From the NCBI GenBank assembly GCA_021158465.1, contig JAGGUN010000035.1, positions 5,669-69,668 of the forward strand: a stretch of 64,000 nt of DNA, written 5' to 3'. Positions 2,954-22,987 of this stretch are shown piece after piece. The position numbers were made by a program, and so were the translations under genes. The stretch's first letter is position 1. Each line of letters opens with the position of its first letter. This stretch comes from a bacterium (lineage in GTDB: Bacteria > UBP14 > UBA6098 > 4484-93). Under the pieces are notes generated by a model. It saw only the letters and a program-made list of their open reading frames with translations, made no database searches and had not been told where the DNA came from.

Positions 2954-2976
2954 CCCGAACTTAGAAAGGATAGGCA

Positions 2977-4068
2977 ATGGACAGAATTGAAAAACTACTA
3001 AAGGAGATCACAGAGATACCGGGACCGTCTGGGTTTGAGATGAAGGTAGCGGATTTTGTTGTCAGCAGGATGGAGGGGTACTACGACGAGCTTGTGCGCG
3101 ACGGTCTGGGTTCTGTCATCCTGAAGAAGTGTGGCACATCCGATTCACCGAGGGTTATGATTGCTGGGCATATGGACGAGGTTGGCTTTATGGTCAAGGG
3201 GATTACCAAGCAAGGGTTTATCAAATTCAATCCGCTCGGTGGATGGTGGAGCCACACCTTGCTTGGACAGAGGGTGAAGATTATCACATCCGATGGGAAA
3301 GAGATACTCGGTGTGGTCGGTTCGAAGCCGCCTCATGCCCTTCAGCCTGATGAGAGGAAGAAGGTGATAGAGCTTGACCAGCTTTACATCGATATAGGGG
3401 TATCGGAGGCTGACCCGAAGCTGCCGGAGAAGGTGGGGATAAAGGTGGGAGATCCGATTGTTCCTCTCTCCGATTTCCAGATTATGGCGGATAAGAAGGT
3501 TTATCTTGCCAAGGCGTGGGATGATAGGATTGGGGTGGCTGTGATGATGGAGGTGATTAGATCCCTTAAGGGCAAGGAGCATCCCAATGTTGTCTTCGGT
3601 GTTGGAACTGTCCAGGAGGAGGTGGGGCTTCGTGGTGCAACAACTGCTGCTTATACTGTGGAGCCGGACATCGCCATCGCCGTCGATGTGACTCTTTGTA
3701 ATGATACCCCAGGTATGCCTGATGCTGAGTATGCCGAGAAGATGGGCAAGGGACCATCTATCTCTGTTATGGATGGCTCGGTCATATCCAACCCATTCTT
3801 CAAGGAGCTCATTGTCGAGACGGCTGAGGAGTTGAAGATACCGTATCAGATGGGCTCGCTCACAAAAGGCGGAACGGATTCTGGAAGGATACATATCTCG
3901 AAACAGGGTGTCCCGTCAAACACGCTTTCTATTCCGACGAGATATATCCATTCCCACAATAGCATACTCCACAGGGACGATTTCGATAACCTTGTGAAGC
4001 TCATAGTCGGGGTTATTATGAAGCTCGATAAGGATACGGTTGAGAGGATTAGAACAAAGAGGAGATGA
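2977..4068 (+). CDS. M42 family metallo-aminopeptidase (FrvX/CelM-like)
   Basis: 363 aa. Contains HMDEVGF and EEVGLRGA motifs typical of M42 glutamyl aminopeptidase / endoglucanase-like peptidases. Its stop overlaps the tldD start in an ATGA. Confidence 0.85.
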   Translation: MDRIEKLLKEITEIPGPSGFEMKVADFVVSRMEGYYDELVRDGLGSVILKKCGTSDSPRVMIAGHMDEVGFMVKGITKQGFIKFNPLGGWWSHTLLGQRVKIITSDGKEILGVVGSKPPHALQPDERKKVIELDQLYIDIGVSEADPKLPEKVGIKVGDPIVPLSDFQIMADKKVYLAKAWDDRIGVAVMMEVIRSLKGKEHPNVVFGVGTVQEEVGLRGATTAAYTVEPDIAIAVDVTLCNDTPGMPDAEYAEKMGKGPSISVMDGSVISNPFFKELIVETAEELKIPYQMGSLTKGGTDSGRIHISKQGVPSNTLSIPTRYIHSHNSILHRDDFDNLVKLIVGVIMKLDKDTVERIRTKRR

Positions 4069-6751: not shown

Positions 6752-7384
6752 TTAGCTTTTGGGTGGTTTACCCATTCTCTTTATAGCGTGCCACACTTTT
6801 ACTGCCTTGGAGCGCAGCACAGGTAGGTCTCCGTTGTTCTTGATGACAAAGTTTACCCTTCTTTTGAGGATGCTGGCGAACTCCTTGTCGAAGCCCTCAT
6901 TCTGAACGGATATTCTTGCTTCGATGTCCGAGCGGGAGTACCCACGCTCGAGTAATCTGTTTGTCCTCTGCCAGGTCGGGGCATCCACGAGGATGAGATA
7001 GTCTAGGAGTTCCATAATATCCTCCCACTTAGGCAGGAGTGCTGCGTCGATGACTGCGAGACCGGGGAAGCGGTGCGCCTCGAGGTTTGAGAGCTCCTCC
7101 TTTATCACTCGCCGGATGTAGGGATGGGTAATCTCTTCGAGATACTTGCGAGCCTCATCATCATGGAATACTATCTCTGCTATCTTCTCGGTTGATATAC
7201 TACCGTCTTCTTCCAGTATCTCATCCCCGAACCGCTCGACCAGCTGCGACTTCGTATCGGGTTTCTCGAGAGCCTCTTTACCTATCCTGTCGGCATCCAG
7301 GAGCTGGGCCCCAAGGTCCTTGAAGGTGGCTGCCACTGTGCTTTTTCCTGTCCCTATCTTTCCTGTTATTCCGACGACTATCAT
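6752..7384 (-). CDS. coaE: dephospho-CoA kinase
   Basis: 210 aa. MIVVGITGKIGTGKST P-loop and typical CoaE length. Confidence 0.9.
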   Translation of the reverse strand: MIVVGITGKIGTGKSTVAATFKDLGAQLLDADRIGKEALEKPDTKSQLVERFGDEILEEDGSISTEKIAEIVFHDDEARKYLEEITHPYIRRVIKEELSNLEAHRFPGLAVIDAALLPKWEDIMELLDYLILVDAPTWQRTNRLLERGYSRSDIEARISVQNEGFDKEFASILKRRVNFVIKNNGDLPVLRSKAVKVWHAIKRMGKPPKS

Positions 7385-7395
7385 ATCTTTCTCTC

Positions 7396-10300
7396 TTATC
7401 TGATGAGGGTGATTGTCCCGTTACAGACTATCTCCCCTTCAACCTCTATAGCATATATGTATAACCCTTCTGGGACTGGTTTATTATGTTTGTCGCGTCC
7501 GTTCCAGCAGCGGTCAAGGAAGTTTGAGAACCCTGTCTGAGGCGGAACGGTGCATTCCCAAATAAGCATGTTACGGAGGTTATACACCCTGATCCTCCCC
7601 TCTTTACTGAACATAAACGGGTAGCTGAAAACCACAAATTCGTTGTAGCCATCGCCGTTTGGCGAGAACGGGTTGGGGTGAACCAGGCAAGATACCCTCG
7701 GTTCGATGGTGAAGAACCAGAAGTACTCATCGTTGTTTGGGTCGCAGTAGTCGGGGGTATCGTACACCGAGAGCTGGACTTCCACTGTGTCCCCAGAACC
7801 GAAGCTCACGCCGACAGCGGGAGGGTTGAATATCAGAAGACCACCAAGCGAATCGCTCGTTGGTTGGAAGTCGAAATCCGGATAGTGATATTCCCTGCCA
7901 GCCACATGAAGCACAAACTCCCCGACATCGGCGCCTGACATAAGGTCGTATACATATATCTCTATTCTCTGCTGATCGCTTCTGACCATCATCTCTGGTG
8001 TGGGAATTCGCATCTCCGCGTAGGGCGGAGTGAAGTCCGTATAGAACTGCCAGCAGACAGGAGCCCCTGTGAGCGGATTGCCAAGATTGTCGTCGGCATG
8101 GGTGAGACAGACCGAGATTGTCTCGTTGTCTGCGAATCCACCATCGGGATGGTAGATTAAGAGAGTATCTCCTATGAATGTTATCTGTGCATCTCCCACC
8201 CTAAATGTCGCACCGTTTACTGTAAGGACAACGGTTTCCGGGTTTACCCCGTCAGGGTCTCTCAGCACCACAGCTATCGACTCATCGATGCAGGCTGTGA
8301 ATGTCTCATTCAAAGGTCTTATAACCGTTGCAACGGGTCCCCCAGGGGAGATTATGAACGAGTATATGGAGTCTAGGATGTTTGGACTGCAATAGTATGT
8401 TGTATCGAGAGTGTGTGGGTTGATATAGATTGTGTCGGGAGAATCTTCTGCCTGAACCTGAACCACAACCTCTGTTCCTCCGAACCACTCGACGCCAGCG
8501 GTGGCCGGGTCGAATGTTATGGTGTCACCTGATATACTGACCCCAGGGTCGTAGAGATGATAGGTTATTCCTCCTATTGTCAGGGTTACCGCTGATGTGT
8601 CGACGCCTGAGACAGAATCAGAGAGGACAAACCGTATTACCGGCTGAGTAGTTGATACGGTCTCGGCGGGGGCGGGCGAGGCATCGGTTATGTAAGGCGG
8701 CTCTATGTCTACAACGAACGACCAGCACAGGGGAGCTCCTGTGAGTGGATTGCCAAGGTTGTCCTCAGCTTCGATAAGGCAGACATCTACTGTCTCAGCC
8801 TCACCAAATGGCGGCTCAGGATGGAATACGAGTATGCTGTCATCTATAAAATCAAGCTCATCGTCAGATATTGTAAGATCTGTTCCTCTGACCTGAAGGA
8901 TTATCGTTGACTCATCCACACCGTTCGGATCGACAATCGAGACGGCGACCGATTCGTCGGGGCACGAGGAGATTGCTCCATCGAACGGCCTGAGAATAGT
9001 CGGGATAGGTCCTCCGGGAGAGATATAGAACGCCCAGCAGGAGTCGAGGACATTCGGGTCACAATAGTCGGGTGTATCCTCGGAGTATATGCAAACAGGT
9101 ATGGTGTCGCCTCCGACAAACGATGTTCCAACAACAGCCGGGTCAAAACAGATTGTTTCACCATCCCAGCTGATCCCTGCGTCGCCTATGTGGTAAGGAT
9201 GTCCTGCAACGGTGAGTGTGATGCCCGCCTCATTAATCCCTGACAGGGAATCCGTTATCTGAACACAGATGATAGGCTCCCTCTCATCGATATAGCTTCC
9301 AGGCAGAGGCGATTGTATGAGTATCACGGGTGGAGTAAGGTCCATTACAAAGCTCCAGGAGACAACGGATGTCAGATGATTACCGAGCGAGTCGTCTGCT
9401 GCAATGAGTGCAACACAGACGGTCTCTGCGTCGACAAACGGCGGGTTAGGTTCAAAGCGAAGGTCAGGGTATGTGAAATCGAGCTCGGGGTCTGTTACCT
9501 CGTAGTAGGCGGTATCTCGACATCCGTTTCTCGCCACCATAAGTCGAATGGTCTCGTCGATGACCGAGTCCTCGTCCTCAATAGTCATCTCGATATGCTC
9601 GGTATCCTCGCAGGCAGAATACGCCCCATCGAACGGGCGAATAATCGTCCCGATAGGTCCGCCCGGTGAGATATAGAATGTCCAGCAGCTATCGGAGCTA
9701 TTCGGGTCGCAGTAGTCGACAGAATCATACGCTACGACACACACATCAACCGTGTCGCCACCACCAAATACGATCCCTGCTATACCGCAGTCCACACTGA
9801 ACAGGGTATCTTCGATAAGCGATACCCCCGGCGAGTCGAGAGCGAATGTATCGCCGTTTATTAGGAAGAACAACGAGTCGAGGTTCAGCCAGGAGATTGT
9901 CTCGTGGAGTATTACCGAGATGATAGGTCTCGTCGACACAACAACATCCTCCGGTGCAGGTGAAAGATCGGTTATCTCGGGTGGAATCCTGTCCATAACA
10001 AATGTCCAGGAGAGAGGCGTCTCGAGCGGATTTCCGAGGATGTCGTCGGCACTCACAAGCTCGACTGTCACCGTCTCTGCATCTCCGAAATACGGATCCG
10101 GGATGAAGATGAGTACACTATCCTCGTAGGTTAGTCTGGGGTCGAGGATGCCTATTGTGTCGTCGTTGACGACGAGGACTATGGTAGAGTCATTGACACC
10201 TGTTGGATCTGTCAGGTATATTACGATATGTTCATCCTCGCAGGCAGAATGTGCACCGTCGAACGGTCGAACGATGGTCGCAACAGGACCGCCCGGCTCG

Positions 10301-13300
10301 ATATAGAATGTCCAGCAGCTATCGAGTAAGTTCGGTCCGCAGTAGTCAGGGGTATCATAGGCAGAAAGACATACATCGACTGTGTCTCCTCCTGTGAATA
10401 GAACACCTGCTGTCGTGGGGTCCCACACAAGAGCTGAATCTGTTAATGTGAGTGATGGGTCGGATAGTGTGTAGTCAGTTCCGTTAATTGTCAATATAAT
10501 TCCTGTTATATCCAGTCCGGAGAGGTCATCCCATAGGTTCATCGAGATGGTTGGCGTTCTTGTGGCGACAACATCGCCGGGAGGTGGTGTAATATTCCAT
10601 ACTCGAGGCGGTGTCGTGTCCATCACAAAGCTCCAGCAGACAGGAGACGGGTCAAGCGGATTACCGATAATGTCCTCAGCATCCGTCAGGCAGACATAGA
10701 TAGTCTCCGCATTGACGAAAGGCTCTGTCGGATAGTAGATCAGGTTCTCTCCATCGAATGAGAAGCCGGAGGTTGTATAGTCGATAAATGTGGTATCGGT
10801 CATATCGGTCGAACGCAACACCCACATCCGGATGGATGATGTCACGACGCCGTCCTCGTCGGATACTATCATCTCGATGTGCTCCGTGTCAATGCAGGCG
10901 GAGTATGCTCCATCGAACGGACGAACGATGGTAGCAACGGGACCACCCGGCTCGATATGGAATGTCCAGCAGCTGTCGAGATGGTTTGCAGGAAGGCAAA
11001 TATCTGGTGAATCATCCGCTCGAATGCAGATTCTCACGCTGTCTCCGCCTGGGACATAAAGCCCGATAGAGTCTGCCCAGATGCAGAAGTGCGGAAAAGT
11101 TCCTGACAATCCTGGGGAGCCGGGGTAAAGAACAATTGTGTCATTCAGAACAACCTCTATTGTTGTTTCGTCAACGCCAGATAGATTGTCTGTCAAGTTG
11201 AAGCAGAGAACGGGTGTTGGCGTTGAGACGGTGTCGCCAGGACCGATTGTTGCATCAGAGACGACAGGCGGCGATAGGTCGACCCAGAAATCCCATGCAA
11301 GTGGTGTCTGAAGTGGGTTGCCGAGATTGTCGTCCGCTCGAACGAGCTCTACCTCGACCAGCTGGGAATCTAGCCATGCCCAGCCAGCCTCGTATGGATA
11401 GAAATAAAGTGTATCGCCGGAGAATCTGATTCCTAAATCATCCAGATGGAATGTCGAGCCGTTGATGATAACCTCGAGCGTCGTCGAGTCGACCCCGACA
11501 TCGTCATCGGAAAGGGCGATAATTATTGCCTGGCTGTCACAGGCAGCAATCTGACCAGGTAGAGGGGTAACTATCTCAGCAACCGGTCCCCTCAGATGCA
11601 CAAAGAAACGCCAGCAACTATCGAGTGTGTTCGGCCCGCAGTAGTCGGGGGAATCATCTGCCGTTACGCATACATCCACCGTATCCCAGTCGTTCCAGTA
11701 GATACCGAGAAGCTCTGGGTCGAATGTTATGCTGTCACCCCAGACTACTCCAGGACTTCCCGGCGTGAGAACAATTGTATCGTCGATTGTGATTGTAACC
11801 GACAAGGAATCCAATCCGGATATGGAATCTGCGATATGGAACGAGATGATGGCAAGAGAATCGTTTATGAGTGTGTCAGGGGATGGGAGTTCGTTCCAGA
11901 TAACGGGTGGTGTCAGGTCGATGAGGAACCGCCAGCACAAGGGAGAACCCATCGGGTTGCCGAGGCTGTCTCGAGCATCCACAAGACAGACATAAACCGT
12001 CTCGCCATCTGTCCAATACTCACTCGGAATGAAGATGAGGGTGTCGTTGACAAAATCGAGCTCCCACGATGCAACTGTGAATGTGTCGTCCCCGACGGTG
12101 AAGATTATACTTGCCGGGTCGACCCCATCCGGGTCGATGATCGTCATAAAAAGGACCTGCTCCGTATCGACACAGGCAACGAAGCTCTCCGGCATATACT
12201 GGATAATGGTCGGGCGAGGCCCAGAAAGCGATACAACAAAGCTGAAGCAGAATTCCTCTGCTACATTCGGCTCGCAATATCCGGGTGTCGGAGAGTCCTG
12301 CGCATTGTGCACACAGACTACCACCGTGTCGCTATCTGCGAATACAAAACCAGCCTCTTCTGGATGCACAACGAGGTTCTCTCCGTCCCAGTCGACCCCC
12401 ACATCCCCTATGTGGAATATGAGCGTGTCGTTTATCGTTATGTAGACCGAATCAGTGGAAAGCCCTGAGACAGAGTCTACAATACTTACTCCTATATCCG
12501 GCGTTGCATCCGGGACGATAGCACCGTCCGGTGGGAAGTTGCCATATATAGCGGGTGGGTGTGTGTCCACGAGGAAGCTCCAGGAAAGCGGGGTATCGGG
12601 CGAGATATTCCCCCAGACATCGGCGAGTGAATCGAGCGAAACAAGCACTACTTCGCTGTCCGAGAAGAAGCCGGCTGGCGGTTGGAATATAATGAGTGTA
12701 TCCCCATCGAGTGTGAGATAGGGGCTGCTGATGGTGTATATAGTTCCGTTCACATTCAGTACGATTGATGATGAGTCTATCCCGGAAGCGTCGTAGACAC
12801 GGATGATAATCTCCTGGTCATCGCAGGCGGATATAATGTCTGGCTCCGGTCGGACAATCTCGGCTGTCGGACCGATGAAGTTCACTGTGAAGCTCCAGCA
12901 GTATGGTTCGATCCTGTTGGAATCGCAGTAGTCGGGGGTATCCCATGCCTGCTGCACACAGACGGTCACTGTCTCACCGTCGGCGAAGGTTATGCCGTTG
13001 CGGACTGTCTCACAGATGTATTCCCCTGTTGTCGGGTCAAGCACAAATACGCTGTCCGAGAGCGTGAATGAGAGTGTGTCGTTTATCGTGAAGACAACGG
13101 ATGGCTCGTAAAGCCCGGATATAGAATCGAAGATGCTGATATGTATAACAGGGTTTGGTGTGGTGACATTCGTATCTGCTGGGAACTCGCCCCAGATATC
13201 GGGTGGGTTAAGGTCAACGAGGAAGCACCAGGTCAGCGGGCAGTCGTCGGATGGGGTGTGATAGATGTCCTCTACATTGTTCACCGTTACGCAGACAGTA

Positions 13301-15528
13301 TCCCCATTGTGCCAGGTGCCGGTGGGCGGCGTTATCGTTAGGATCGAATCATCATGGAAGGATACCCACCTCGGGTCGACCGTAAACGGCTCACCGTTCA
13401 CCGTTATGGAGAAATCGATGCTGGATTCATCTATCGGCGCGGCGACCGGATGGATGAACAGTTCGATATACTGGTCATCGCATGCTGTTATGGAGTCGGG
13501 TTGCGGGATAACTATCTCGAGGGCAGGACCTGCAAGTGCAACATAGAATGTCCAGCAGAAGCTCGTGTCGTTCGGAGCGCAATAGTCATAGGTAGGCGAG
13601 TCCCAGGCATGAAGAATGCATACCTCCACTGTATCGCCATTGGAAAAGCTTACACCTGTTATCTCGATATGCATCCCATCGAATGTGAAGGAGTATCCGC
13701 TTATAACTGTTCCGTTCACCGACACCTGGATGTTGGAATCGACGATCGAGGATGGGTCGAGCCCGGAGATCGCATCGAATATATCAACGCCGATGACCGG
13801 TGTCGGTGTATGAACGACGGTATCCATAGGTGGGTAAGCGTTGTCGAATATAGGTGGTTCAATGTCTACCTGGAAGTTGCAGGTAACGATGTTTGCTACG
13901 CAGCCTGAGTCATCCTCTGCACTGATGAGAGAGAATGTGACCCAGGAGCCGTTTGTCCAAGGGGTGGAGGGGATAAAATGTAGTTCGGGTGGGCTCCAGG
14001 TGAGCTGTGGGTCGGATGTTGTGTAGTTTATCCCGTTCACCTGAAGGATTATGCTCGACTCGATAATAGGAGCCATTCCCGGGCTGATGTTTATTATTAT
14101 GTCCTGGTATTCGCAGGAGGTTATTCCGCCGCAGGGGTCGGGACGAACCACCTCCGCCACAGGTGGAGACCCTTCGCAGTAAGGGATGTCGAAGCAGTAG
14201 TCTATCGAGTTGCCGTCGATATCAGGCGATGTTGTCGTCACATCGATGTGAATGCAGGTGTTTGTTCCCATACAGTCGCGGTTCAGCTCAAAACGCCAGG
14301 AAGCGCTCCCGACAGATGGGTCCAGGCAGAATGGGTCCTCCGAGGAACACAGGTCTCTTGGATCTGTATACTGCGGATTAGCTCCAGAGACGAGCGTCAG
14401 GCAGCTCGCATCATAGGTTATTGTCGCCTGGACATTGTAAGCCGTCTCATCATCGAACGGCCAGAGGGTGTAATATGTATTGCGGACGAGGAGCGTAACA
14501 TCGATGGGATTTGGAGACAGCTCCCCGCAGCGAGCGCAGCTTATCATTATCGGGTTGAGGTTCAGCTCGAGTTCACCCTCGCTCGTTATCTCCGCACCGA
14601 GACCATAGTATGTCGCCTGTCGGAGAGTTCCACCTGGGGGAATGGAAACAGGATACCACCACAGGAGGACTGCGGAATCACCGTATGTTCCGAAGGTCGG
14701 TGTATAGTCCCAGACAACATTATAATAGGTGGGCCAGGAACCGAGGCAGATCCTGTCTGGTATCGTTGATTCAGGACCCAATATGTCACCCTGTGCTACC
14801 ATACCTGAGAGGTCATCATTCTCCCATGCTCGCCAGTAGGAGGGTATGTCTGGAGCGAGGAACTCCTGCTCGTGGTCCTCGAAGCCATAGTATGTTGAAA
14901 TCCTTGTCGCATCGTTCCCGTTTATCATCGTATCGAACTCTATCAGGAGCCCTACATTGTGCGATACTGTTCCGGTGTTCTCCATAAAATATTCGTAGAG
15001 GATAGTTGCTGAGCCAGGACCGGATATCTGGCGGGGGGAGAGTTTCTGTGTTATCCGTATGTCCCCTGCCTGCCAGACCGTCCAGATGGTGTCTCCAACA
15101 GAATAGGGAGGAGTTGTGAGTGTAGGGACGAATGTCCCTGTAAGCCCTCGGATGTTGTAGATCACCCCATCGATATTGAAGGCGACCCAGGAGCTCCATG
15201 GGCGCGGTGCCCCAGGGTCGACACCACCAACATCGTGACGGAAATCGTACAGGAGATCCCTGCCGGTTAGGTCTCCTTCAACGAAGTCGCCTATCCAGGT
15301 AGAGCCGCCGCCGGTGCCATCTGCATCGTCAGCTGTTGCCACACATACCCTCACATTCTGGGTAGGGTCACCACCGTTATAGTTGCTCTGGATACACACG
15401 CAAGGGGTCATAATATCCTTCGAAGAGGAAGGATGTCTTGCCGTTTTCCACGAACCACCCTCCTGTGCGAACAGGGACCAAGAGATCATTAACCCCAGAA
15501 ACGCCAAAGCCAGCCACGATCTTTTCAT
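7396..15528 (-). CDS. giant secreted repeat protein (2710 aa): signal peptide, unique N-terminal region of about 450 aa, about 10-11 tandem two-domain repeats, and a T9SS type B C-terminal sorting domain
   Basis: N-terminal signal peptide MKRSWLALAFLGLMISWSLFAQ. Recurring motif ...DTVxVCxxAxDxPDYCxPNxLDSCWTFYIxPGGPxAxIVRPxDGAxSAC.D..I... at a period of about 210 aa. C-terminus NPFSPNGDGYNEF...WNGRD...GLYIYAIEV, matching the gliding-motility / TIGR04131-type CTD. Confidence 0.85.
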   Translation of the reverse strand: MKRSWLALAFLGLMISWSLFAQEGGSWKTARHPSSSKDIMTPCVCIQSNYNGGDPTQNVRVCVATADDADGTGGGSTWIGDFVEGDLTGRDLLYDFRHDVGGVDPGAPRPWSSWVAFNIDGVIYNIRGLTGTFVPTLTTPPYSVGDTIWTVWQAGDIRITQKLSPRQISGPGSATILYEYFMENTGTVSHNVGLLIEFDTMINGNDATRISTYYGFEDHEQEFLAPDIPSYWRAWENDDLSGMVAQGDILGPESTIPDRICLGSWPTYYNVVWDYTPTFGTYGDSAVLLWWYPVSIPPGGTLRQATYYGLGAEITSEGELELNLNPIMISCARCGELSPNPIDVTLLVRNTYYTLWPFDDETAYNVQATITYDASCLTLVSGANPQYTDPRDLCSSEDPFCLDPSVGSASWRFELNRDCMGTNTCIHIDVTTTSPDIDGNSIDYCFDIPYCEGSPPVAEVVRPDPCGGITSCEYQDIIINISPGMAPIIESSIILQVNGINYTTSDPQLTWSPPELHFIPSTPWTNGSWVTFSLISAEDDSGCVANIVTCNFQVDIEPPIFDNAYPPMDTVVHTPTPVIGVDIFDAISGLDPSSIVDSNIQVSVNGTVISGYSFTFDGMHIEITGVSFSNGDTVEVCILHAWDSPTYDYCAPNDTSFCWTFYVALAGPALEIVIPQPDSITACDDQYIELFIHPVAAPIDESSIDFSITVNGEPFTVDPRWVSFHDDSILTITPPTGTWHNGDTVCVTVNNVEDIYHTPSDDCPLTWCFLVDLNPPDIWGEFPADTNVTTPNPVIHISIFDSISGLYEPSVVFTINDTLSFTLSDSVFVLDPTTGEYICETVRNGITFADGETVTVCVQQAWDTPDYCDSNRIEPYCWSFTVNFIGPTAEIVRPEPDIISACDDQEIIIRVYDASGIDSSSIVLNVNGTIYTISSPYLTLDGDTLIIFQPPAGFFSDSEVVLVSLDSLADVWGNISPDTPLSWSFLVDTHPPAIYGNFPPDGAIVPDATPDIGVSIVDSVSGLSTDSVYITINDTLIFHIGDVGVDWDGENLVVHPEEAGFVFADSDTVVVCVHNAQDSPTPGYCEPNVAEEFCFSFVVSLSGPRPTIIQYMPESFVACVDTEQVLFMTIIDPDGVDPASIIFTVGDDTFTVASWELDFVNDTLIFIPSEYWTDGETVYVCLVDARDSLGNPMGSPLCWRFLIDLTPPVIWNELPSPDTLINDSLAIISFHIADSISGLDSLSVTITIDDTIVLTPGSPGVVWGDSITFDPELLGIYWNDWDTVDVCVTADDSPDYCGPNTLDSCWRFFVHLRGPVAEIVTPLPGQIAACDSQAIIIALSDDDVGVDSTTLEVIINGSTFHLDDLGIRFSGDTLYFYPYEAGWAWLDSQLVEVELVRADDNLGNPLQTPLAWDFWVDLSPPVVSDATIGPGDTVSTPTPVLCFNLTDNLSGVDETTIEVVLNDTIVLYPGSPGLSGTFPHFCIWADSIGLYVPGGDSVRICIRADDSPDICLPANHLDSCWTFHIEPGGPVATIVRPFDGAYSACIDTEHIEMIVSDEDGVVTSSIRMWVLRSTDMTDTTFIDYTTSGFSFDGENLIYYPTEPFVNAETIYVCLTDAEDIIGNPLDPSPVCWSFVMDTTPPRVWNITPPPGDVVATRTPTISMNLWDDLSGLDITGIILTINGTDYTLSDPSLTLTDSALVWDPTTAGVLFTGGDTVDVCLSAYDTPDYCGPNLLDSCWTFYIEPGGPVATIVRPFDGAHSACEDEHIVIYLTDPTGVNDSTIVLVVNDDTIGILDPRLTYEDSVLIFIPDPYFGDAETVTVELVSADDILGNPLETPLSWTFVMDRIPPEITDLSPAPEDVVVSTRPIISVILHETISWLNLDSLFFLINGDTFALDSPGVSLIEDTLFSVDCGIAGIVFGGGDTVDVCVVAYDSVDYCDPNSSDSCWTFYISPGGPIGTIIRPFDGAYSACEDTEHIEMTIEDEDSVIDETIRLMVARNGCRDTAYYEVTDPELDFTYPDLRFEPNPPFVDAETVCVALIAADDSLGNHLTSVVSWSFVMDLTPPVILIQSPLPGSYIDEREPIICVQITDSLSGINEAGITLTVAGHPYHIGDAGISWDGETICFDPAVVGTSFVGGDTIPVCIYSEDTPDYCDPNVLDSCWAFYISPGGPIPTILRPFDGAISSCPDESVAVSIVDPNGVDESTIILQVRGTDLTISDDELDFIDDSILVFHPEPPFGEAETVDVCLIEAEDNLGNPLTGAPLCWSFVVDIEPPYITDASPAPAETVSTTQPVIRFVLSDSVSGVDTSAVTLTIGGITYHLYDPGVSISGDTITFDPATAGVEWFGGTEVVVQVQAEDSPDTIYINPHTLDTTYYCSPNILDSIYSFIISPGGPVATVIRPLNETFTACIDESIAVVLRDPDGVNPETVVLTVNGATFRVGDAQITFIGDTLLIYHPDGGFADNETISVCLTHADDNLGNPLTGAPVCWQFYTDFTPPYAEMRIPTPEMMVRSDQQRIEIYVYDLMSGADVGEFVLHVAGREYHYPDFDFQPTSDSLGGLLIFNPPAVGVSFGSGDTVEVQLSVYDTPDYCDPNNDEYFWFFTIEPRVSCLVHPNPFSPNGDGYNEFVVFSYPFMFSKEGRIRVYNLRNMLIWECTVPPQTGFSNFLDRCWNGRDKHNKPVPEGLYIYAIEVEGEIVCNGTITLIR
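8000..13600 (-). repeat. intragenic tandem DNA repeats (unit about 0.63-0.65 kb) encoding the two-domain repeat of the giant protein
   Basis: Near-identical stretches such as GGACCGCCCGGCTCGATATAGAATGTCCAGCAGCTATCG at about 9660-9695 and 10290-10325, with a variant at about 10940-10980. Coordinates of the repeat block are approximate. Confidence 0.7.
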
Positions 15529-15529
15529 C

Positions 15530-17245
15530 TTATTTTATCCCTCCCGAAACTCCTTTTATTGGTAAAAAGACCACAAATTCGCTTCCTGAGCCTGCCTTGC
15601 TGTGAACCTCTATAAGCCCCTTATGCTGGGTTGCTATCCTCTGTGCAATTGAAAGCCCAAGTCCTGTCCCCTTTGGTTTTGTCGAGAAGAACGGCTGGAA
15701 TATCTTCAGCAGGTTCTTCTCGCTTATACCCACACCGTTATCCTTTATGGATATCCCGACAAGCGTTATGTTCCTGTCGAGGAGCCCTTCTCGCTGTCCA
15801 TCAAGCGATATCCGTATCTCTGGTTTCTTTTCGTTCTTTACAGCCTCGACTGCATTTATCAGGAGGTTCAGAAACAGTTGCTTGAGGTGGTCCTCGCGCC
15901 CATATACGCTGAACTCCTTGCCCTCGAACTCATTTATCACTGTTATTCTGTCGTCCCAGCAGGAGTTTCTTTTCAATAGCTCTAATGTTTCTCTAAAAAG
16001 CTTGGAGATGTCTGTTTTCACGAACGGTAGCTGAGAGAGAGAGACATCCTCGATTCGAGCAAAGTTCAAGAACTCATCGAGTATCCCCTTCAGGCGATCG
16101 GTTTCCTTAACTATTAGGTCGAACAGTTCTCGTTTTTCGCTCTCTGTGGGGAAGAGTTCCTTGTTTAGAAGCTCGACCGAGCCACGGATCGAAGCTAACG
16201 GGTTTCTTATCTCGTGTGCTAGACCGGCAGACATCTCCCCGATAAGTGCCATCTTGTCCACATTCTTGAGATACTCGTCTACAAGCTTCTCCTGTGTTAT
16301 GTCCTCGAAGACCGTTATCACCCCACGAACTATGCCGGCTACCTTAAGGGTGCTTGTCACAAGGAGGAGCGGGATCTCCTTCCCCTCATCCGATGTTATA
16401 ATTATCTCACCACGAGAGTTCTCGTTTGTAGAACCGGAGAGTGCTCGCTCCAGCGTTTCTCGGAATGTGCGAAGCCGCTCTGGAAACACCTCTCGGAAAT
16501 CTTTATCCCTTACTTCCGACTTGTTGAGCCCGAGTATCTTGCCTGCTGCCTCGTTGAAGTACTGTATCCTCCCAGTTGTATCCACCGTCACAAGCCCGTT
16601 GCGCATATACTCCAGTATCTCATCCGTGTCCATACGCGTCTGCATCAGCTGATAATAGAGGAGTTCGATCTCGTCGATGCGGGCTCGAAGCCTGTTGGAG
16701 ATATACCCAGCAAGGAGCGCAACTATGTAGAAGAAGCAGACATAGATATAGGTTAGATAAAAAAGGTACTCTGATTGGGAGTAATACGATGCGTGGAAGA
16801 AGCCTGGTCTAAAGGGGAGGATATTTTTTGCCTCTAAGAAGACAAGAACGACGAGTGATGCCGAGGCAAATGTAGTTATCAGCAGGGTTCCGCCCATCTC
16901 GAGGAAGAACGAGGTGCTTATTATGGTGAAGAACAGGAGTATTACAAAGGGGGAGTTTATCCCACCGGAGTAGTGAATGATAGCCAATTCGGTCAGGATT
17001 TCCACTACGGAGTGGATAGTGCAGAGGAATTTCAGGCTTACCTTCTTATGGGTGAACCGCCAGAGGGAGAGGGCAAGAAAGAAGCCGAGGGTTGTTATAC
17101 CGTACAGCAGCAGAAATTCGTATAGAAACTTCTCCGATGCGCCGAGGATAAAGGGAGCGGAGATGAAGATAAAAACGAATATAAACAACCTAAGGATTAA
17201 GAGCCAGTTGAGTCTCTTTTTTAGCTCTTCCTGCCTGGATTCCAT
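15530..17245 (-). CDS. PilS-like sensor histidine kinase (6 TM, PAS, HisKA, HATPase)
   Basis: 571 aa. Six hydrophobic helices at the N-terminus, a PAS-like region, H-box HEIRNPLASIRG and G-boxes NGVGI / GTGLGLSIA. No response regulator in the window. Confidence 0.85.
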   Translation of the reverse strand: MESRQEELKKRLNWLLILRLFIFVFIFISAPFILGASEKFLYEFLLLYGITTLGFFLALSLWRFTHKKVSLKFLCTIHSVVEILTELAIIHYSGGINSPFVILLFFTIISTSFFLEMGGTLLITTFASASLVVLVFLEAKNILPFRPGFFHASYYSQSEYLFYLTYIYVCFFYIVALLAGYISNRLRARIDEIELLYYQLMQTRMDTDEILEYMRNGLVTVDTTGRIQYFNEAAGKILGLNKSEVRDKDFREVFPERLRTFRETLERALSGSTNENSRGEIIITSDEGKEIPLLLVTSTLKVAGIVRGVITVFEDITQEKLVDEYLKNVDKMALIGEMSAGLAHEIRNPLASIRGSVELLNKELFPTESEKRELFDLIVKETDRLKGILDEFLNFARIEDVSLSQLPFVKTDISKLFRETLELLKRNSCWDDRITVINEFEGKEFSVYGREDHLKQLFLNLLINAVEAVKNEKKPEIRISLDGQREGLLDRNITLVGISIKDNGVGISEKNLLKIFQPFFSTKPKGTGLGLSIAQRIATQHKGLIEVHSKAGSGSEFVVFLPIKGVSGGIK

Positions 17246-17253
17246 AACTTGAT

Positions 17254-18456
17254 TTAAGCCTTTATTTGACCTATGATATCAAACATAGGTAGATACATTG
17301 CTATCAAGAGCGCGCCAACTATCCCACCCAGAACTACAATTGTGATAGGCTCAATGAGGGACATAAGTGTGGTGACAGCTGCATCCACCTCCTCGTCGTA
17401 GAAGTCGGCGATTCGTGTCAGCATATCGTCTAAGTTACCTGTCTGTTCGCCGACAGCTATCATCTGCACGACCATTGGTGGAAACACCTTACTTTCCCTG
17501 AGAGGCGCAGTGATGGTTTCTCCCTCGGAGATACTCACCATAGAGCCGTGTATAGCCTTTTGGAGGACCACATTTCCGGCTGTTTTGGATGTGATGTTCA
17601 GCGCGTCGATGAGGTTGACACCGCTCGAGAGCAGGGTAGCTAAGGTTCTTGTAAAGCGGGCTATGGCGGTCTTACGGATGAGTGGACCGAATACTGGGAG
17701 CTTGAGTTTAGCAGAATCTATCCACCAGCGTCCTTGGCGTGTTCTCTGGAGTCCTGAGAAACCTAATATAATGCCGACAACAAAGAGGACGATCAGAATA
17801 GCATTATGTCTGAAGAAGCTGGAGATGCCGAGCACAATCAGGGTTGGTTTGGGGAGTTCAGCACCCAGCCCCTCGAACATGCCCGCAAAGACTGGGATAA
17901 TAAAGGTCAACATTGCCCAGGTTATAAGGATAGTAAATGCGAAGATTGCAGTCGGGTAGGCCATAGCTCCTTTAATCTTGCGCCTTATCGAATCCATCTT
18001 TTCCCTGAACTCGGCGAGTCGTTTCAGGATGACCTCGAGGGCACCACCTGCCTCACCTGCTTCTACCATATTCACATACAGGTCGTCGAACACCTTCTTG
18101 TGTTTTGCGAGGGCGCTGGATAGGGTTGAGCCGCCGGAGACATCCGCTTTGACCTGTGATATAACATTGGCGAGATACTTGTTCTCTGTCTGTTCTGCAA
18201 GGATTGTCAGGCATTGAACGATGGGAAGTCCTGCCTCTACCATTGTGGCGAATTGGCGAGTGAACCTCGATATGTCAACGCTGGAGATCCCTGTTCCGAA
18301 GCGGATATTTATCTCCTTCTGTTTCTTCTTTACAGAGGAGATGATGATCCGCTGCTTCCGCAGGAAGAGTTTAAGTTCCTCGGCGTTTTTGGCTTCCAGC
18401 TCCCCCGATATAGGAGCGCCAGTCAATGTCCTTCCCTGATATTCAAATACAGGCAT
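17254..18456 (-). CDS. pilC: type IV pilus assembly platform protein PilC (GspF family)
   Basis: 400 aa. Duplicated GspF domains, three TM segments and a typical PilC N-terminus. Confidence 0.9.
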   Translation of the reverse strand: MPVFEYQGRTLTGAPISGELEAKNAEELKLFLRKQRIIISSVKKKQKEINIRFGTGISSVDISRFTRQFATMVEAGLPIVQCLTILAEQTENKYLANVISQVKADVSGGSTLSSALAKHKKVFDDLYVNMVEAGEAGGALEVILKRLAEFREKMDSIRRKIKGAMAYPTAIFAFTILITWAMLTFIIPVFAGMFEGLGAELPKPTLIVLGISSFFRHNAILIVLFVVGIILGFSGLQRTRQGRWWIDSAKLKLPVFGPLIRKTAIARFTRTLATLLSSGVNLIDALNITSKTAGNVVLQKAIHGSMVSISEGETITAPLRESKVFPPMVVQMIAVGEQTGNLDDMLTRIADFYDEEVDAAVTTLMSLIEPITIVVLGGIVGALLIAMYLPMFDIIGQIKA

Positions 18457-18470
18457 AATCTTTCCTCCTA

Positions 18471-19553
18471 TTATGCTCCCCTACCAACTCTCTCCTTCCT
18501 CCGCATAATGAGGTCGTTGAGCTCTGCAGGGTCGGAAGAATGAGCATATGCCTCTTCCAGTGAGATTAGACCACGAAGGTAAAGGTCTGCTATGGACATA
18601 TTCATTGTCTGCATACCGTATTTTTGTCCAGCTTGCATAGTTGAGTATACCTGATGAATTTTATCCTCCCTTATCTGGGCTCTGATTGCTGGCGTAACAA
18701 TGAGTATCTCTGTCGCAACGATCCTTCCGCCGCCTATCATCGGGATAAGTTGCTGGGTGACGATTGCGCGGAGGACGAAGGAGAGCTGTACCCTTACCTG
18801 GGTCTGCTGGGCGGGTGGAAAGATATCTATAATTCGGTTTATTGTTTCTGCACAGGAATTGGTGTGGAGGGTTCCGAATGTTAAATGTCCTGTTTCGGCG
18901 ATAGTGAGGGCTGCCCTAATTGTTTCGAGGTCTCGCATCTCACCTATCATAACAACATCCGGGTCCTCACGCATTGCGTATTTGAGAGCTGAGTCGAATG
19001 ATTTGGTATCCGAATACACCTCGCGCTGGTTTACTATGGAGTTTTTGTGTTTGTGGACAAATTCTATCGGGTCCTCGACGGTGAGTATATGGACGTGTTT
19101 CTCCGTATTTATCTTATCGACGAGTGCTGCCAAGGTTGTGCTTTTACCTGTGCCGGTTGGACCGGTGATAAGGACGAGTCCTTTTGGGTAGTCAGTGAAG
19201 GAATTGATTATCTTGGGTAACCTCAGCTCTTCGATCCCCTTTATCACTGTTGGGACCCTGCGGAGAGCCATTGCAACGACTCCCTGCTGTAGGAATATGT
19301 TTGTCCGGAAGCGGCAGAGTCCTTCGATTCCGAATGAGAGGTCAATCTCCCAGTTCTCCTCGAACTTCTGTTTCTGTTTCTCGGTCATAATGCTGTAGGC
19401 AAGGCGCTTTGCTGTTTCTGGTGTTACAACCTCATATCTGCTTCTGACGAGCTTTCCATCTATTCTAAACATCGGGGGTGCGCCCGGGGTTATGTGTAGG
19501 TCACTTGCCTCTCTTTTCACAACCTCTGTAAGGAGTTCACGCATCGAAATCAT
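18471..19553 (-). CDS. pilT: twitching-motility retraction ATPase PilT
   Basis: 360 aa. LVLITGPTGTGKST Walker A and PilT-size secretion ATPase; N-terminus MISMRELL...SDLHIT. Confidence 0.9.
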   Translation of the reverse strand: MISMRELLTEVVKREASDLHITPGAPPMFRIDGKLVRSRYEVVTPETAKRLAYSIMTEKQKQKFEENWEIDLSFGIEGLCRFRTNIFLQQGVVAMALRRVPTVIKGIEELRLPKIINSFTDYPKGLVLITGPTGTGKSTTLAALVDKINTEKHVHILTVEDPIEFVHKHKNSIVNQREVYSDTKSFDSALKYAMREDPDVVMIGEMRDLETIRAALTIAETGHLTFGTLHTNSCAETINRIIDIFPPAQQTQVRVQLSFVLRAIVTQQLIPMIGGGRIVATEILIVTPAIRAQIREDKIHQVYSTMQAGQKYGMQTMNMSIADLYLRGLISLEEAYAHSSDPAELNDLIMRRKERVGRGA

Positions 19554-19569
19554 AGAACTGCCTCCTCAT

Positions 19570-21267
19570 CTATGAGATTGTAGTGGCTATTACCTGTTCA
19601 GCGGTTACTATGCCCTTCTTTAACTTCTCTATTGCCTCTGCTCGAAGGGTTGCCATCCCTTCCTTGCAGGCTTGCTCCTGGAGCTCCAAGGCAGATGCTC
19701 CCTCTATTATCATATGCTCGAGGGTTCTTGTTATGGGCATTACCTCAAATACTCCGGTTCGCCCTTTATACCCTGTCCCTCCGCAGGTGTCGCAACCTCT
19801 TCCTTTATAGAATTTGATATCCTTTGCCTCTTCGTCTGTTAGTCCGAGGAGTTCGAGCTCCTCTGGGGAGATTTCTGTTTCCTCTTTGCAGTTGGGGCAG
19901 ATTGTCTTAAGGAGTCTCTGTGCTATAACGAGCTTGACGGATGATGCGACAAGGAACGGCTGGACCCCCATATCGACAAGTCTGATTATGGTTGATGGAG
20001 CATCATTTGTATGCAAGGTAGAGAAGACCAGGTGTCCTGTCAGTGCTGCCTTGATAGCGGTGTCTGCTGTCTCAAAGTCTCTTATCTCTCCGACCATTAT
20101 GATGTCCGGGTCTTGGCGCAGGAATGAGCGAAGCGCTGCAGCGAATGTGAGCCCTATCTCAGGATGCACCTGCACTTGGTTTATTCCTTCGATGTTGAAC
20201 TCGACAGGGTCCTCGGCGGTCATTATATTAACCATCGGGTTGTTAAGTGTAGATAAGGCTGAGTATAAGGTTGTGGTTTTACCTGATCCTGTGGGTCCTG
20301 TTACCAGTATCATTCCGTAAGGTAGGTGTATTGCCTGTCGGAACAGTTTGAGAGACCTCTCGGGGAATCCAAGTTTTGTCATATCGAGCATCAGCGTTTG
20401 TGGGTCTAGTATTCTCATAACGACCTTTTCCCCGAACATGCATGGTAGGACCGAGACACGGAGGTCGACTGGTCTACCACCTGCATTTATCTTGATTCTA
20501 CCGTCCTGTGGTCGGCGCCTCTCCGATATATCGAGCCTCGACATAATCTTGATACGGGATACCACGGCGTGGCGGAGCTTGCTCGGTATAGGGGTCATCT
20601 CGTGAAGGACACCATCCACGCGGTACCGGACCCGAACGGACTTCTCATAAGGCTCGATGTGTATATCGGATGCCTTCTGGCGTATCGCCTCTAATATTAT
20701 CCCGTCTACAAGGCGGACGAGCGGTTTCTCCTGAACAGCCTTTTCTATCTCCTGTTCTGTGAAATCTTCTGTTTCTTCCAGGACCTCTATCTCCTCGTAG
20801 TCTGCATTCATCTCTGAGATGATCTCATCGAGGGAGTGTTCCTCCTCGTAGTATTTATTTATCGCCTCCTGGATAGCGTTTTTCGATGAGACGAGCGGCT
20901 GGACATCAAGACCGGTAACAAACTTCAGCGTGTCGAGGACATAAACATTTGTCGGGTCACTGGTTGCAATGAAAAGGATCTTCCCTATCCTTAAGGTGGG
21001 TACCACGCCGAACTTCTTTGCTATTTCTGCAGGTATAAGAGAGATTATCTCCGAGTCCAGTTCCATATCCGAAAGCTTGACGGTGCCGATATTTAACTGC
21101 TTTGCCAGGAACTCCGAGATTACATTCTCGTCCTTGATAAATCCCAGCTCCAATAGTACCTGACCAAGTTTTTGCCCTGTCTCTTTCTGGCGTTCGAGGG
21201 CGATCTTCAACTCCTCCTCCGTTATCTTCCCCGCTTTCACGAGCATCTCGCCGATCTTTAGTGCCAT
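19570..21267 (-). CDS. pilB: type IV pilus extension ATPase PilB (GspE family) with an MshEN-type N-terminal domain
   Basis: 565 aa. GspE ATPase core (TGPTGSGKTT) and a C-terminal tetracysteine CPNC...CDTCGGTG. N-terminal tandem motifs KIGEMLVKAGKITEEELKIALERQ and KLGQVLLELGFIKDENVISEFLAKQ. Confidence 0.9.
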   Translation of the reverse strand: MALKIGEMLVKAGKITEEELKIALERQKETGQKLGQVLLELGFIKDENVISEFLAKQLNIGTVKLSDMELDSEIISLIPAEIAKKFGVVPTLRIGKILFIATSDPTNVYVLDTLKFVTGLDVQPLVSSKNAIQEAINKYYEEEHSLDEIISEMNADYEEIEVLEETEDFTEQEIEKAVQEKPLVRLVDGIILEAIRQKASDIHIEPYEKSVRVRYRVDGVLHEMTPIPSKLRHAVVSRIKIMSRLDISERRRPQDGRIKINAGGRPVDLRVSVLPCMFGEKVVMRILDPQTLMLDMTKLGFPERSLKLFRQAIHLPYGMILVTGPTGSGKTTTLYSALSTLNNPMVNIMTAEDPVEFNIEGINQVQVHPEIGLTFAAALRSFLRQDPDIIMVGEIRDFETADTAIKAALTGHLVFSTLHTNDAPSTIIRLVDMGVQPFLVASSVKLVIAQRLLKTICPNCKEETEISPEELELLGLTDEEAKDIKFYKGRGCDTCGGTGYKGRTGVFEVMPITRTLEHMIIEGASALELQEQACKEGMATLRAEAIEKLKKGIVTAEQVIATTIS

Positions 21268-21349
21268 CGTACCCCCTTGACAAGGAATACACTCATACCT
21301 GCTTCACTATCTATATAAATATACAACATTCTCTTTCAAAATTCAAATA
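21268..21349 (-). promoter_or_regulatory. putative promoter region upstream of pilB
   Basis: 82-nt AT-rich gap. The minus strand carries TTGAAT/TTGAAA and TATATT-like hexamers, but they cannot be resolved uniquely. Confidence 0.2.
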
Positions 21350-22987
21350 TTACCTACCGGTTATAGCGAATTCCACTTTGTGTGTTTTATCGGCAAATTT
21401 CAAGACTGCTGTATATACTCCTTTTGCCAGATTTCTACCGTCGAAGCTCATAGCAGAAGTTTTCTCTCTGTGGAACCCTGTATAGATGAGCTTCTCCTCG
21501 GCAGCCACGAGCTCGCCAGATGCTGTGAACACGGCGAGGCAGAGCTTTCCATCGTTTGGCACATAGTATGGGAAATAGACTACACCGTCCGTTGATGGGT
21601 TCGGGTAAGGTGCCCAGAAGACAGGTTTGTCTTTTGGAAGAGCGGTTTCTCCGCTGTATTCCCAATGGAATTCGTAGTTATAGACGCCCGAGGTATTGCG
21701 TGAAACGAACGGGATTACGATAAGCTTTTCATATTTATATAGAGAATCTATGAAGACCGTTTGGGGGAAAGAGCTTATTGTTTGGTAGAGGTTTTTGGCG
21801 TCCGTTCCCGGATTGGCGAGAAGGACGATGTTCATTCCCATACCTGGGGAGCAGTCTGTCTCAAGTGAGAGGTTCTTCCTATCTCGTCTCTGGTAGAACC
21901 AGAGGTATCTGGATGAGAGCTTGTATAGTCCTGATGAGGGAGAGAACAGTCCTGAGTCCTGGAATTCGTAATCGTTTATATCGTCTGTCGCTATCTCTGG
22001 ATATAGTTCTGCTTCTCTATAAAACTTCCCGTAGGCGCAGTTTTCTCCTGTGAACAGGTTCCAGAGGGTAAAGTTTGCAAATACCTGATCGAAACCGAAT
22101 CCTCTGTCGTTGCAGGCAGATTCGATTGCCTCGATGGAAGATACAAACGGTTCTGAGCAGTTCTCCCATACATTCCGAATGATGTTTATATCATCTGTGA
22201 ACTCCCATAAGAAGCGAGGGAATATCACCGAGCCGTACAACAGGGCGCTTGATGTCAGGACTTCACCTGGATTATCGAAGAATATCGGGAGATAGAGGAT
22301 ATAATCGTTGACAGCGTCGAATATATAGTCCTCCATAAGGACTGCCGTTGCCTCCATCCACCAGATGTCCTCCATAGCATCGTAGGTGAACTGCACAAGA
22401 TGGAACAGTTCGTGAGCACAGGTAACTGCCAGTGCATCGGTCTCATGGTCGGCGTACTCTGGGATATTTGCGTAGTCGTTGTCAATCACCGAGTATCCGG
22501 AGCGAAGCTGGATCTGCCCGACGGGATGTCTTTCATCGACCGTCCAGCCATAAGCGGTATTGTCGATATCGAGGATATAGAAGTCTATTCGATCGTCGCC
22601 GCCGACATCGGATGCATCAGGGAAGGTTGACGAATCAGGTAGTGGCCGGTTATAGCCAAGTGAACCAACATACATGGACAGTGAATACTCTAAGAGGTTT
22701 CCCGCTGTTTCGACCCAGTCAGGGACGCCGTTTGAGTTGGTGTCTGCTGTGGAGACAGCGGAATTACCCTCCGTCGTGTACCAGATCCTAAAGTTTGGGG
22801 TATCGTAGAAATACGGCAGTTCTGGTCTCTCCCTTTGCACATATTTCCCATCGCGAGTTGCCTGGAGGATGTAAGGCGTCAGGGATTTGACCGGGAGTTT
22901 CGTGCCTGCAGGGATGAGCTGGTCGATTGTTTCTCCTATCAGGGAACAGGCAGGAAGTAGAAGAAGGATAATCAATCTCTTTAGCAT
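21350..22987 (-). CDS. secreted HExxH zinc-metalloprotease-like protein with a T9SS-like C-terminal domain
   Basis: 545 aa. Signal peptide MLKRLIILLLLPACSL. Motif TCAHELFHLVQF...E. C-terminus PYPNPSTDGVVYF...GVYTAVLKF resembles a cargo CTD. Confidence 0.6.
   Translation of the reverse strand: MLKRLIILLLLPACSLIGETIDQLIPAGTKLPVKSLTPYILQATRDGKYVQRERPELPYFYDTPNFRIWYTTEGNSAVSTADTNSNGVPDWVETAGNLLEYSLSMYVGSLGYNRPLPDSSTFPDASDVGGDDRIDFYILDIDNTAYGWTVDERHPVGQIQLRSGYSVIDNDYANIPEYADHETDALAVTCAHELFHLVQFTYDAMEDIWWMEATAVLMEDYIFDAVNDYILYLPIFFDNPGEVLTSSALLYGSVIFPRFLWEFTDDINIIRNVWENCSEPFVSSIEAIESACNDRGFGFDQVFANFTLWNLFTGENCAYGKFYREAELYPEIATDDINDYEFQDSGLFSPSSGLYKLSSRYLWFYQRRDRKNLSLETDCSPGMGMNIVLLANPGTDAKNLYQTISSFPQTVFIDSLYKYEKLIVIPFVSRNTSGVYNYEFHWEYSGETALPKDKPVFWAPYPNPSTDGVVYFPYYVPNDGKLCLAVFTASGELVAAEEKLIYTGFHREKTSAMSFDGRNLAKGVYTAVLKFADKTHKVEFAITGR

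Follow-up and report, generated by a model that had tools for sequence, protein, structure and literature searches.

In a 64-kb stretch of DNA from a Zixibacteria-related bacterium (contig JAGGUN010000035.1; the whole stretch is called the window below), the type IV pilus (T4P) motor genes pilB, pilT and pilC and the gene of a PilS-type sensor histidine kinase are followed on the minus strand by a gene for a 2710-amino-acid (aa) secreted protein, here called the giant gene, and by coaE. The giant gene directly follows pilS in three deep lineages, namely the window (junction of +1 nt), L046/L048 (+8 nt) and L056/L057 (−4 nt, an ATGA overlap); loci of relatives are referred to by L numbers. Identities among the three lineages are 58-63% for PilC, 41-43% for PilS and 57-60% for the N-terminal head of the giant protein. 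The flanking genes differ, with an HExxH protease gene and metG upstream in the window and opposite-strand HD and ThiC genes in L056, and with coaE downstream in the window and a gene for a 23S-rRNA-IVP protein in L046, which places coaE outside the conserved unit. Because it recurs in three deeply diverged lineages, the pilS-giant link is probably no packing accident, and we lean towards reading the locus as a co-transcribed pilus-motor and adhesin unit that has been retained by selection.

Genes were named by Pfam and NCBIfam profile searches of the window. These confirm the gene identities given in an earlier note on this DNA, and the positions and co-directional order of the six open reading frames (ORFs) are likewise borne out, with successive gaps from pilB to coaE of 16, 14, 8, 1 and 11 nt (Table 1). 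PilB passes the type IVa equivalog TIGR02538 (739.6 bits, cut-off 675.65) and scores 470 bits with T2SSE. It also matches MshEN (69 bits) and, at residues 4-57, the MshE-type cyclic di-GMP (c-di-GMP)-binding motif NF053729 (63.1 bits, cut-off 38), a motif given which pilus extension may be gated by c-di-GMP. The best NCBIfam models for PilC are PilC equivalogs (459.9 and 438.7 bits, both under their 700-bit cut-offs). The kinase scores 42.5 bits with 6TM_PilS (PF25323, gathering score 27) and has about six transmembrane segments, with hydrophobic stretches within residues 10-184; its homologues number hundreds, many of which JGI names PilS. No pilR gene adjoins pilS in the window, and the profile searches found no response regulator anywhere in it.

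The order pilB-pilT-pilC-pilS is kept in all relatives examined, some of which have extra pilB or pilT copies, and in none of the 11 relative loci with pilS contexts is pilS followed by pilR or by a pilin gene. The type IVa clusters of Geobacter sulfurreducens and Myxococcus xanthus run pilB-pilT-pilC-pilS-pilR-pilA. The window shares with them the order and orientation of the first four genes, the type IVa families of PilB, PilT and PilC and a six-transmembrane PilS-type kinase. It differs in that no pilR or pilin gene follows pilS, here or in the relatives, and that the gene of a 2710-aa cargo of a type IX secretion system (T9SS) stands there instead. In L046/L048, where the giant gene comes after pilC and pilS, the head matches that of the window at 55% identity in BLASTP and at 57-58% when aligned globally, and the protein has Big_5 and CHU_C domains. 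In L056/L057, three pilB copies, pilT, pilC and the kinase gene precede the giant gene, which the contig end cuts at 1024 aa. The heads of the three lineages form one subfamily, whose next relative is at most 47% identical (582 vs 197 bits), and all three known members of the giant subfamily adjoin pilS. No PilS-type match adjoins any of the paralogues examined (L047, L049-L055); in L053 and L054 the only matches are to the kinase core, at 25-29% identity and 3.7-3.8 kb downstream of the paralogue, and the L053 gene encodes a hybrid kinase-receiver. In the literature searched, no paper was found that describes an operon of T4P genes with a T9SS cargo gene.

The same comparison bears on a passive reading of the synteny, in which the giant gene would happen to stand where a conserved pilB-pilT-pilC-pilS block ends on its variable 3' side, in a very compact genome, and would have no functional tie to pili; read-through from the pil promoter would be optional, and persistence in three lineages would be inherited gene order. 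The position after pilS is a breakpoint with six kinds of neighbour across relatives (Table 1), and the paralogues have the canonical link to a PorP-type gene and no pil genes close by. Spacing speaks for it as well. The same-strand junctions of the window, all tabulated, have a median gap of 11 nt. Genes with no relation to each other, housekeeping genes among them, lie equally tight: 4 nt between metG and a metallo-beta-lactamase (MBL) hydrolase gene, 9 nt between the MBL gene and a cargo gene, and a 7-nt overlap of the HExxH protease gene and metG, all in a window whose pil genes belong to a minus-strand directon of 30 kb. Small gaps are thus a habit of this genome and no evidence for coupling, and the earlier use of spacing as a sign of coupling is rejected. 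Against passive inheritance, both outer flanks have been reshuffled, yet the pilS-giant junction has been held at all three spacings, and adjacency to pilS is found in three of three known members of the giant subfamily and in none of the shorter paralogues examined. We regard passive synteny as a real but rather unlikely explanation.

We built a neighbour-joining tree of PilC and PilS (929 columns, 200 bootstraps), which is a two-gene tree and not a species tree. The giant-bearing lineages form a grade in it, with L056 as sister to the giant-less L044/L045/L036/L037 (72-75% bootstrap) and 0.5% support for monophyly of the giant bearers. Because of this grade, the pilS-giant link is probably ancestral and was lost once, as far as the tree of these two genes tells. 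A recent horizontal insertion of the giant gene is rejected on its G+C content at third codon positions (GC3), which at 0.579 is like that of its neighbours, and on the orthologue that occupies this position in lineages whose PilS is about 42% identical.

The giant gene is an intact native gene under purifying selection. The kinase of the window is 92% identical to one in the metagenome-assembled genome (MAG) 'candidate division Zixibacteria bacterium 4484_93' (L001), and L039 and L040 are two more assemblies of this relative, of which L040 shares the layout of the window, its 2710-aa gene being intact as well. Comparison with L040 gives 2710 aa for the giant protein on both sides, no stops and a ratio of nonsynonymous to synonymous substitution (dN/dS) of 0.09, with 0.07 in the tail; the pil genes range from 0.05 to 0.07. 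Of five public assemblies, three have a giant gene that is collapsed, broken in frame or split by runs of N (L001:11718-15336, L039:11727-19460, L046:4549-4802), and the resulting annotations are fragments of 957 aa, of 1318 aa and of 462 and 2318 aa. The 957-aa ORF of L001 and the fragments of L039 are this giant gene, collapsed in assembly. The 462-aa and 2318-aa calls of L046 are not two genes either, since the break between them falls on a stretch of N in the scaffold. Giant repeat genes that are broken or collapsed in MAG assemblies in this way will be under-annotated and under-counted in MAG surveys.

A scan of the locus found no minus-strand terminator-like hairpin at any junction from pilB to coaE. 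The co-directional layout described earlier stands and appears free of internal terminators, though the counts of promoter-like and terminator-like sites equal the shuffled expectation and the promoter rules of the host phylum may differ from the consensus scanned. The 82-nt spacer upstream of pilB contains a candidate sigma-70-like promoter within a block of about 34 nt that hardly varies in L040 and L001, relatives at 92% identity, whereas the spacer has indels elsewhere; we infer that it may serve as the promoter of the pil locus. Rfam searches found no RNA element in the 6-22 kb region of the window. At the pilS-giant junction, the pilS stop codon TAA (15532-15530) is separated by one base from the ATG of the giant gene at 15528. 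The earlier note took this gap to imply translational coupling. Coupling is possible, but because the giant gene has its own Shine-Dalgarno sequence, GGGAGGG, inside pilS, it is not required; such a sequence inside pilS is found in each of the three giant-bearing lineages.

An improbable alternative is that the giant gene is a regulatory target filling the pilR-pilA slot, transcribed from a separate promoter in the 3' end of pilS and controlled by PilS by way of a phosphorelay and an unlinked response regulator; the kinase would in that case adjust the display of the adhesin instead of, or besides, pilin supply. It draws on the shared gene order with the deltaproteobacterial clusters, where pilR and pilA follow, on the 11 relative loci with neither pilR nor a pilin gene after pilS, and on the L035-L038 clade, where the gene 12-16 nt past pilS encodes another secreted protein, namely an esterase, which in L037 bears a T9SS tail. 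The end of pilS shows no recognisable promoter in a sigma-70-type consensus scan, which performs at chance level. The window has no response regulator, and a 1-nt gap or a 4-nt overlap favours read-through over a separate start.

The giant protein starts with a putative Sec-type signal peptide, MKRSWLALAFLGLMISWSLFA/QEG, which has a typical n-h-c layout by eye and is neither a prepilin leader nor a lipoprotein signal. The head that follows (residues 22-453) matches no Pfam or NCBIfam model, and its predicted fold is a galactose-mutarotase-like beta-supersandwich, with moderate model confidence. A word-indexed search gave two matches only, as if the head were an orphan domain, and this was overturned by exhaustive phmmer searches, which placed 1414 cluster representatives in the family at E<=1e-3 and 71 at E<=1e-30. 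In seven representatives scanned for domain content the head is joined to VWA, cohesin, Big_5 or HYDIN-type immunoglobulin-like (Ig) stalks; four have Por_Secre_tail and/or FlgD_ig matches at the C-terminus, two have CHU_C, and in one (P0129, 2148 aa) Big_5 is the sole match. The head is found at the N-terminus of many T9SS cargo proteins of 500-3100 aa with varied stalks.

The 20 Ig-like domains are of two alternating kinds and form nine complete two-domain super-repeats of about 215 aa (period 209-224 aa), with one extra domain at each end. The super-repeats are only 33-50% identical to each other, on which ground a recent repeat expansion is rejected. Tandem Repeats Finder found no tandem repeat, its longest period of 500 lying below the unit of about 650 nt. 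One super-repeat modelled by AlphaFold2 gave two beta-sandwiches (pLDDT 87.9), with tandem Ig/fibronectin type III modules as best PDB matches. In the whole protein there are 402 acidic (D+E) and 72 basic (K+R) residues and 75 cysteines, and we infer that the Ig-like domains form a long, acidic, disulfide-rich stalk, whose length we estimate at roughly 80 nm if each Ig domain adds about 4 nm. The array of beta-sandwich domains of about 100 aa, the acidic composition and the distal non-repeat head are shared with giant Ig-repeat adhesins and S-layer-type Big_5 (SbsA-type) proteins. The giant protein differs from these in its predicted export by a T9SS C-terminal domain and not by type I or type V secretion, in its two alternating domain types with conserved cysteines and in a head from an unnamed family.

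The C-terminal domain of the giant protein matches CHU_C with 28.3 bits when the whole protein is scanned and with 36 bits for its last 134 aa, against a gathering score of 27. The type B model TIGR04131 scores 29.5 bits against a cut-off of 35 (E 6e-7, profile positions 3-85 of 85), and no type A model of Pfam or NCBIfam matches. The T9SS type B C-terminus claimed before thus stands with Pfam and falls short of the NCBIfam cut-off. Three type A T9SS cargo genes in the window (25571-27889, 30845-35482 and 37448-39328) give indirect support for T9SS use by the host.

Scanning metagenomes with the head alignment brought up shorter paralogues (1030-1130 aa), whose heads are 35-42% identical over the full aligned stretch. 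Those of L050, L053 and L054 end in a CHU_C-like domain that is 38-40% identical to the C-terminal domain of the giant (38-46% over the paralogues paired with PorP_SprF genes), and in L050 and L053 a gene of about 965 aa with PorP_SprF, CARDB and OmpA domains (Pfam) directly follows. The giant gene itself has no adjoining PorP/SprF-like gene, its downstream neighbour being coaE, and tblastn with three PorP_SprF-OmpA proteins gave no match in the window. The earlier note had set the giant apart from PorP/SprF-linked cargo; this holds for the gene itself, with no adjacent partner and none in the window, and not for its paralogues, which directly precede a PorP_SprF-CARDB-OmpA gene. Type B cargo is canonically anchored by PorP-like partner proteins (PMC9143113; PMC12618676), and orphan type B cargo served by an unlinked shuttle is known in Flavobacterium johnsoniae (PMC12618676). 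By this analogy the giant protein is best seen as an orphan type B cargo.

The paralogues also bear on the idea that the C-terminal domain is not a T9SS signal at all and is instead a FlgD-Ig-like or CHU_C-like fold with another use, the protein taking another route of export or retention. The sub-threshold TIGR04131 score fits this, as do the lack of a T9SS core gene or PorP partner in the window and a literature search that found no paper linking Zixibacteria with T9SS. However, the CHU_C match is above threshold, the domain stands at the very end of a protein that starts with a putative Sec signal, paralogues with a PorP_SprF gene next to theirs end in homologous domains, the window has three type A cargo genes, and the dN/dS of the tail is low. 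We consider this idea highly improbable.

Like SprB of F. johnsoniae, which is linked to SprF, the giant is a surface protein of great length and many repeats, with a putative Sec signal at one end and a type-B-like C-terminal domain at the other (PMC12618676; PMC9143113), and its paralogues are encoded directly upstream of a PorP_SprF-family gene. Unlike sprB, the giant gene has no adjacent PorP/SprF gene and resembles the orphan type B cargo of F. johnsoniae (PMC12618676); the host is Zixibacteria-like and not a member of the Bacteroidota, the partner of the paralogues is a single PorP_SprF-CARDB-OmpA fusion, sequence resemblance to SprB does not extend beyond the C-terminal domain, and there is no sign of gliding. 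In Porphyromonas gingivalis PG1035-PorP-PorE, a PorP-like barrel anchors a type B cargo and is itself attached to peptidoglycan through a domain of the OmpA family (PMC9143113). The L050 and L053 proteins likewise combine barrel and peptidoglycan-binding functions, but in one polypeptide with CARDB between them, and none is encoded in the window. This fusion is a single-chain version of the PorP-PorE anchor, present in non-Bacteroidota metagenome contigs, and in L053 a hybrid PAS kinase-receiver gene follows it.

Returning to the co-transcribed unit that we lean towards, the locus would be a type IVa core-motor operon, pilB-pilT-pilC with a PilS-type kinase gene, to whose 3' end a giant adhesin gene became attached and was long kept. 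Transcription would start in the spacer upstream of pilB and continue through the giant gene, and because the transcript would run from pilB through the giant gene, the adhesin would be made whenever the pilus motor and its sensor are made. The giant protein would cross the inner membrane by Sec, be recognised by the T9SS through its type-B-like C-terminal domain and be anchored at the surface by a PorP/SprF-type outer-membrane partner encoded elsewhere. Its 20 Ig-like domains would form the stalk and present the beta-supersandwich head, which probably binds a glycan or a surface, and pili would do the reaching and retracting and the adhesin the holding. A stronger form of the reading, which we offer only tentatively, takes the locus as an adhesion-motility operon that is old and under selection in a Zixibacteria-related clade; it would wire together two envelope machines with separate evolutionary roots, T4P for reach and retraction and the T9SS for display of the adhesin, and a PilS-type kinase with neither a pilR nor a pilin gene beside it would tune display to pilus activity or surface contact.

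Several points weigh against the co-transcribed unit. Pilus-adhesin co-expression and functional coupling are read from gene order, and co-transcription alone would not imply shared function; tight packing joins the unrelated metG, MBL hydrolase and coaE genes in the same directon. The synteny asked for earlier is found in part, as the same giant gene follows pilS in L046/L048 and L056/L057 while eight other PilS contexts (three clades or singletons) have no giant gene after pilS. The link is seen in three lineages only, two of them on short contigs cut inside or just past the gene, and its ancestry is argued from a two-gene neighbour-joining tree of moderate support. The type B match is the sub-threshold one given above, and the fold of the head comes from a model of moderate confidence. 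Profile searches of the window found no pilin, PilR or PilMNOPQ gene and no PorP/SprF, PorV, PorU, SprA or PorKLMN gene. With no T9SS core gene, pilin, PilR or PilMNOPQ gene in the window, the hybrid adhesion/motility module proposed in the earlier note keeps the standing of a conjecture.

Type IV pili and the T9SS are usually studied as separate surface machines, and the T9SS almost only in Bacteroidota. The locus is a concrete, conserved genetic link between the two in an uncultured phylum of the FCB group. It combines known kinds of system in a new way and is not a new kind of system; the conserved pilS-giant junction is the unexpected part. A functional link would make the locus a simple natural example of pilus motility regulated together with adhesin display; without function, it is a pilus operon of the ordinary sort next to a secreted adhesin that is ordinary apart from its very large size. 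Type B cargo and PorP/SprF partners exist outside Bacteroidota, with the partner as a fused PorP-CARDB-OmpA anchor, and a large unnamed family of N-terminal head domains is carried by many T9SS cargo proteins.

Table 1. Features of the pil-giant locus in the window, genes found after pilS in giant-less relatives, and partner ORFs of the short paralogues.
Feature	Position	Strand	Evidence or remark
pilB, type IVa pilus extension ATPase with N-terminal MshEN/c-di-GMP-binding motif	19570..21267	-	TIGR02538, T2SSE, MshEN, NF053729
pilT, retraction ATPase	18471..19553	-	TIGR01420, PilT/PilU family, 475.7 bits (cut-off 319.1)
pilC, inner-membrane platform protein	17254..18456	-	two T2SSF (PF00482) stretches, 224 bits
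pilS, PilS-type sensor histidine kinase	15530..17245	-	6TM_PilS, PAS_9, HisKA, HATPase_c
Giant gene, 2710-aa protein with Big_5 and CHU_C	7396..15528	-	Pfam
coaE, dephospho-CoA kinase, final gene of the directon	6752..7384	-	TIGR00152, 124.8 bits
Sigma-70-like promoter candidate TTGAAT-17-TATATT	21318..21346	-	consensus scan, 9/12 matches, overall no better than shuffles
Shine-Dalgarno GGGAGGG of the giant gene, within the pilS 3' end	15539..15545	-	sequence reading; 10 nt upstream of the ATG at 15528
Putative Sec-type signal peptide, giant residues 1-21 (MKRSWLALAFLGLMISWSLFA)	15466..15528	-	inspection of translation
N-terminal head, giant residues 22-453, all-beta domain then CARDB/DUF11-like Ig domain	14170..15465	-	
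20 Ig-like (Big_5-type) domains, giant residues 454-2612	7693..14169	-	Big_5, 73.5 bits
Type-B-like T9SS C-terminal sorting domain, giant residues 2613-2710 and stop	7396..7692	-	CHU_C, TIGR04131
Esterase after pilS	L035-L038		at 12-16 nt; T9SS type A tail in L037
S8-like peptidase after pilS	L044		after a 255-nt gap
Opposite-strand genes after pilS	L045		
Xanthine-dehydrogenase genes after pilS	L058		after a gap of about 960 nt
ATP synthase after pilS	L041, L043		
Rotamase after pilS	L042		
PorP_SprF-CARDB-OmpA ORFs after short type B cargo paralogues	L050:13102-16008, L053:7390-10278		Pfam
963-aa ORF in the same position after the paralogue	L054:5180-8071		domain content assumed from size and position

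In the giant-less clade of L035-L038, the post-pilS gene encodes an alpha/beta-hydrolase of the COesterase family (L037:11807-13033, L035:11802-13079), again a secreted protein in this slot. Its presence there could be chance, since about one in ten genes in the window is T9SS cargo. Extra motor paralogues are found in L056 (three pilB, 826-5961), L044 (two pilB, 3308-6732) and L035-L037 (two pilT, L035:6375-8769). In another Zixibacteria clade a Ras-like GTPase gene flanked by genes of Roadblock/LC7 proteins precedes pilB (L041:3676-5867, L042:3738-5696, L043:26-532); by its resemblance to MglA/MglB the pair may act as a polarity switch for pili. The pair is absent upstream of pilB in the window. 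There, the gene just upstream (21350-22987, minus strand) encodes an HExxH metalloprotease of the MXAN_6640 family (224 bits, cut-off 140) with a weak T9SS-tail-like match at its C-terminus and is the one that overlaps metG.

The gene at 30845-35482 (minus strand) encodes a 1545-aa C25 (gingipain-type) peptidase with FG-GAP repeats and a type A T9SS tail. An assignment as the PorU sortase is not supported, a PorU-related model scoring 31 bits against a 450-bit cut-off; it looks like cargo. Upstream of it, with a 16-nt overlap, lies the gene of a 408-aa protein (35467-36693, minus strand), which was rejected as PorV because it has no PorV match and is a cytoplasmic sequence resembling glycosyltransferase family 4 (GT4). 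Between the two genes of a split glycine dehydrogenase, gcvPA (47394-48734) and gcvPB (45306-46766), there is a 209-aa ORF with no family match (46768-47397, minus strand), with junctions of −4 and +1 nt. The only Rfam matches in the window are a large bacterial signal recognition particle RNA (62085-62351, plus strand, 171 bits) and one tRNA (55736-55809, minus strand).

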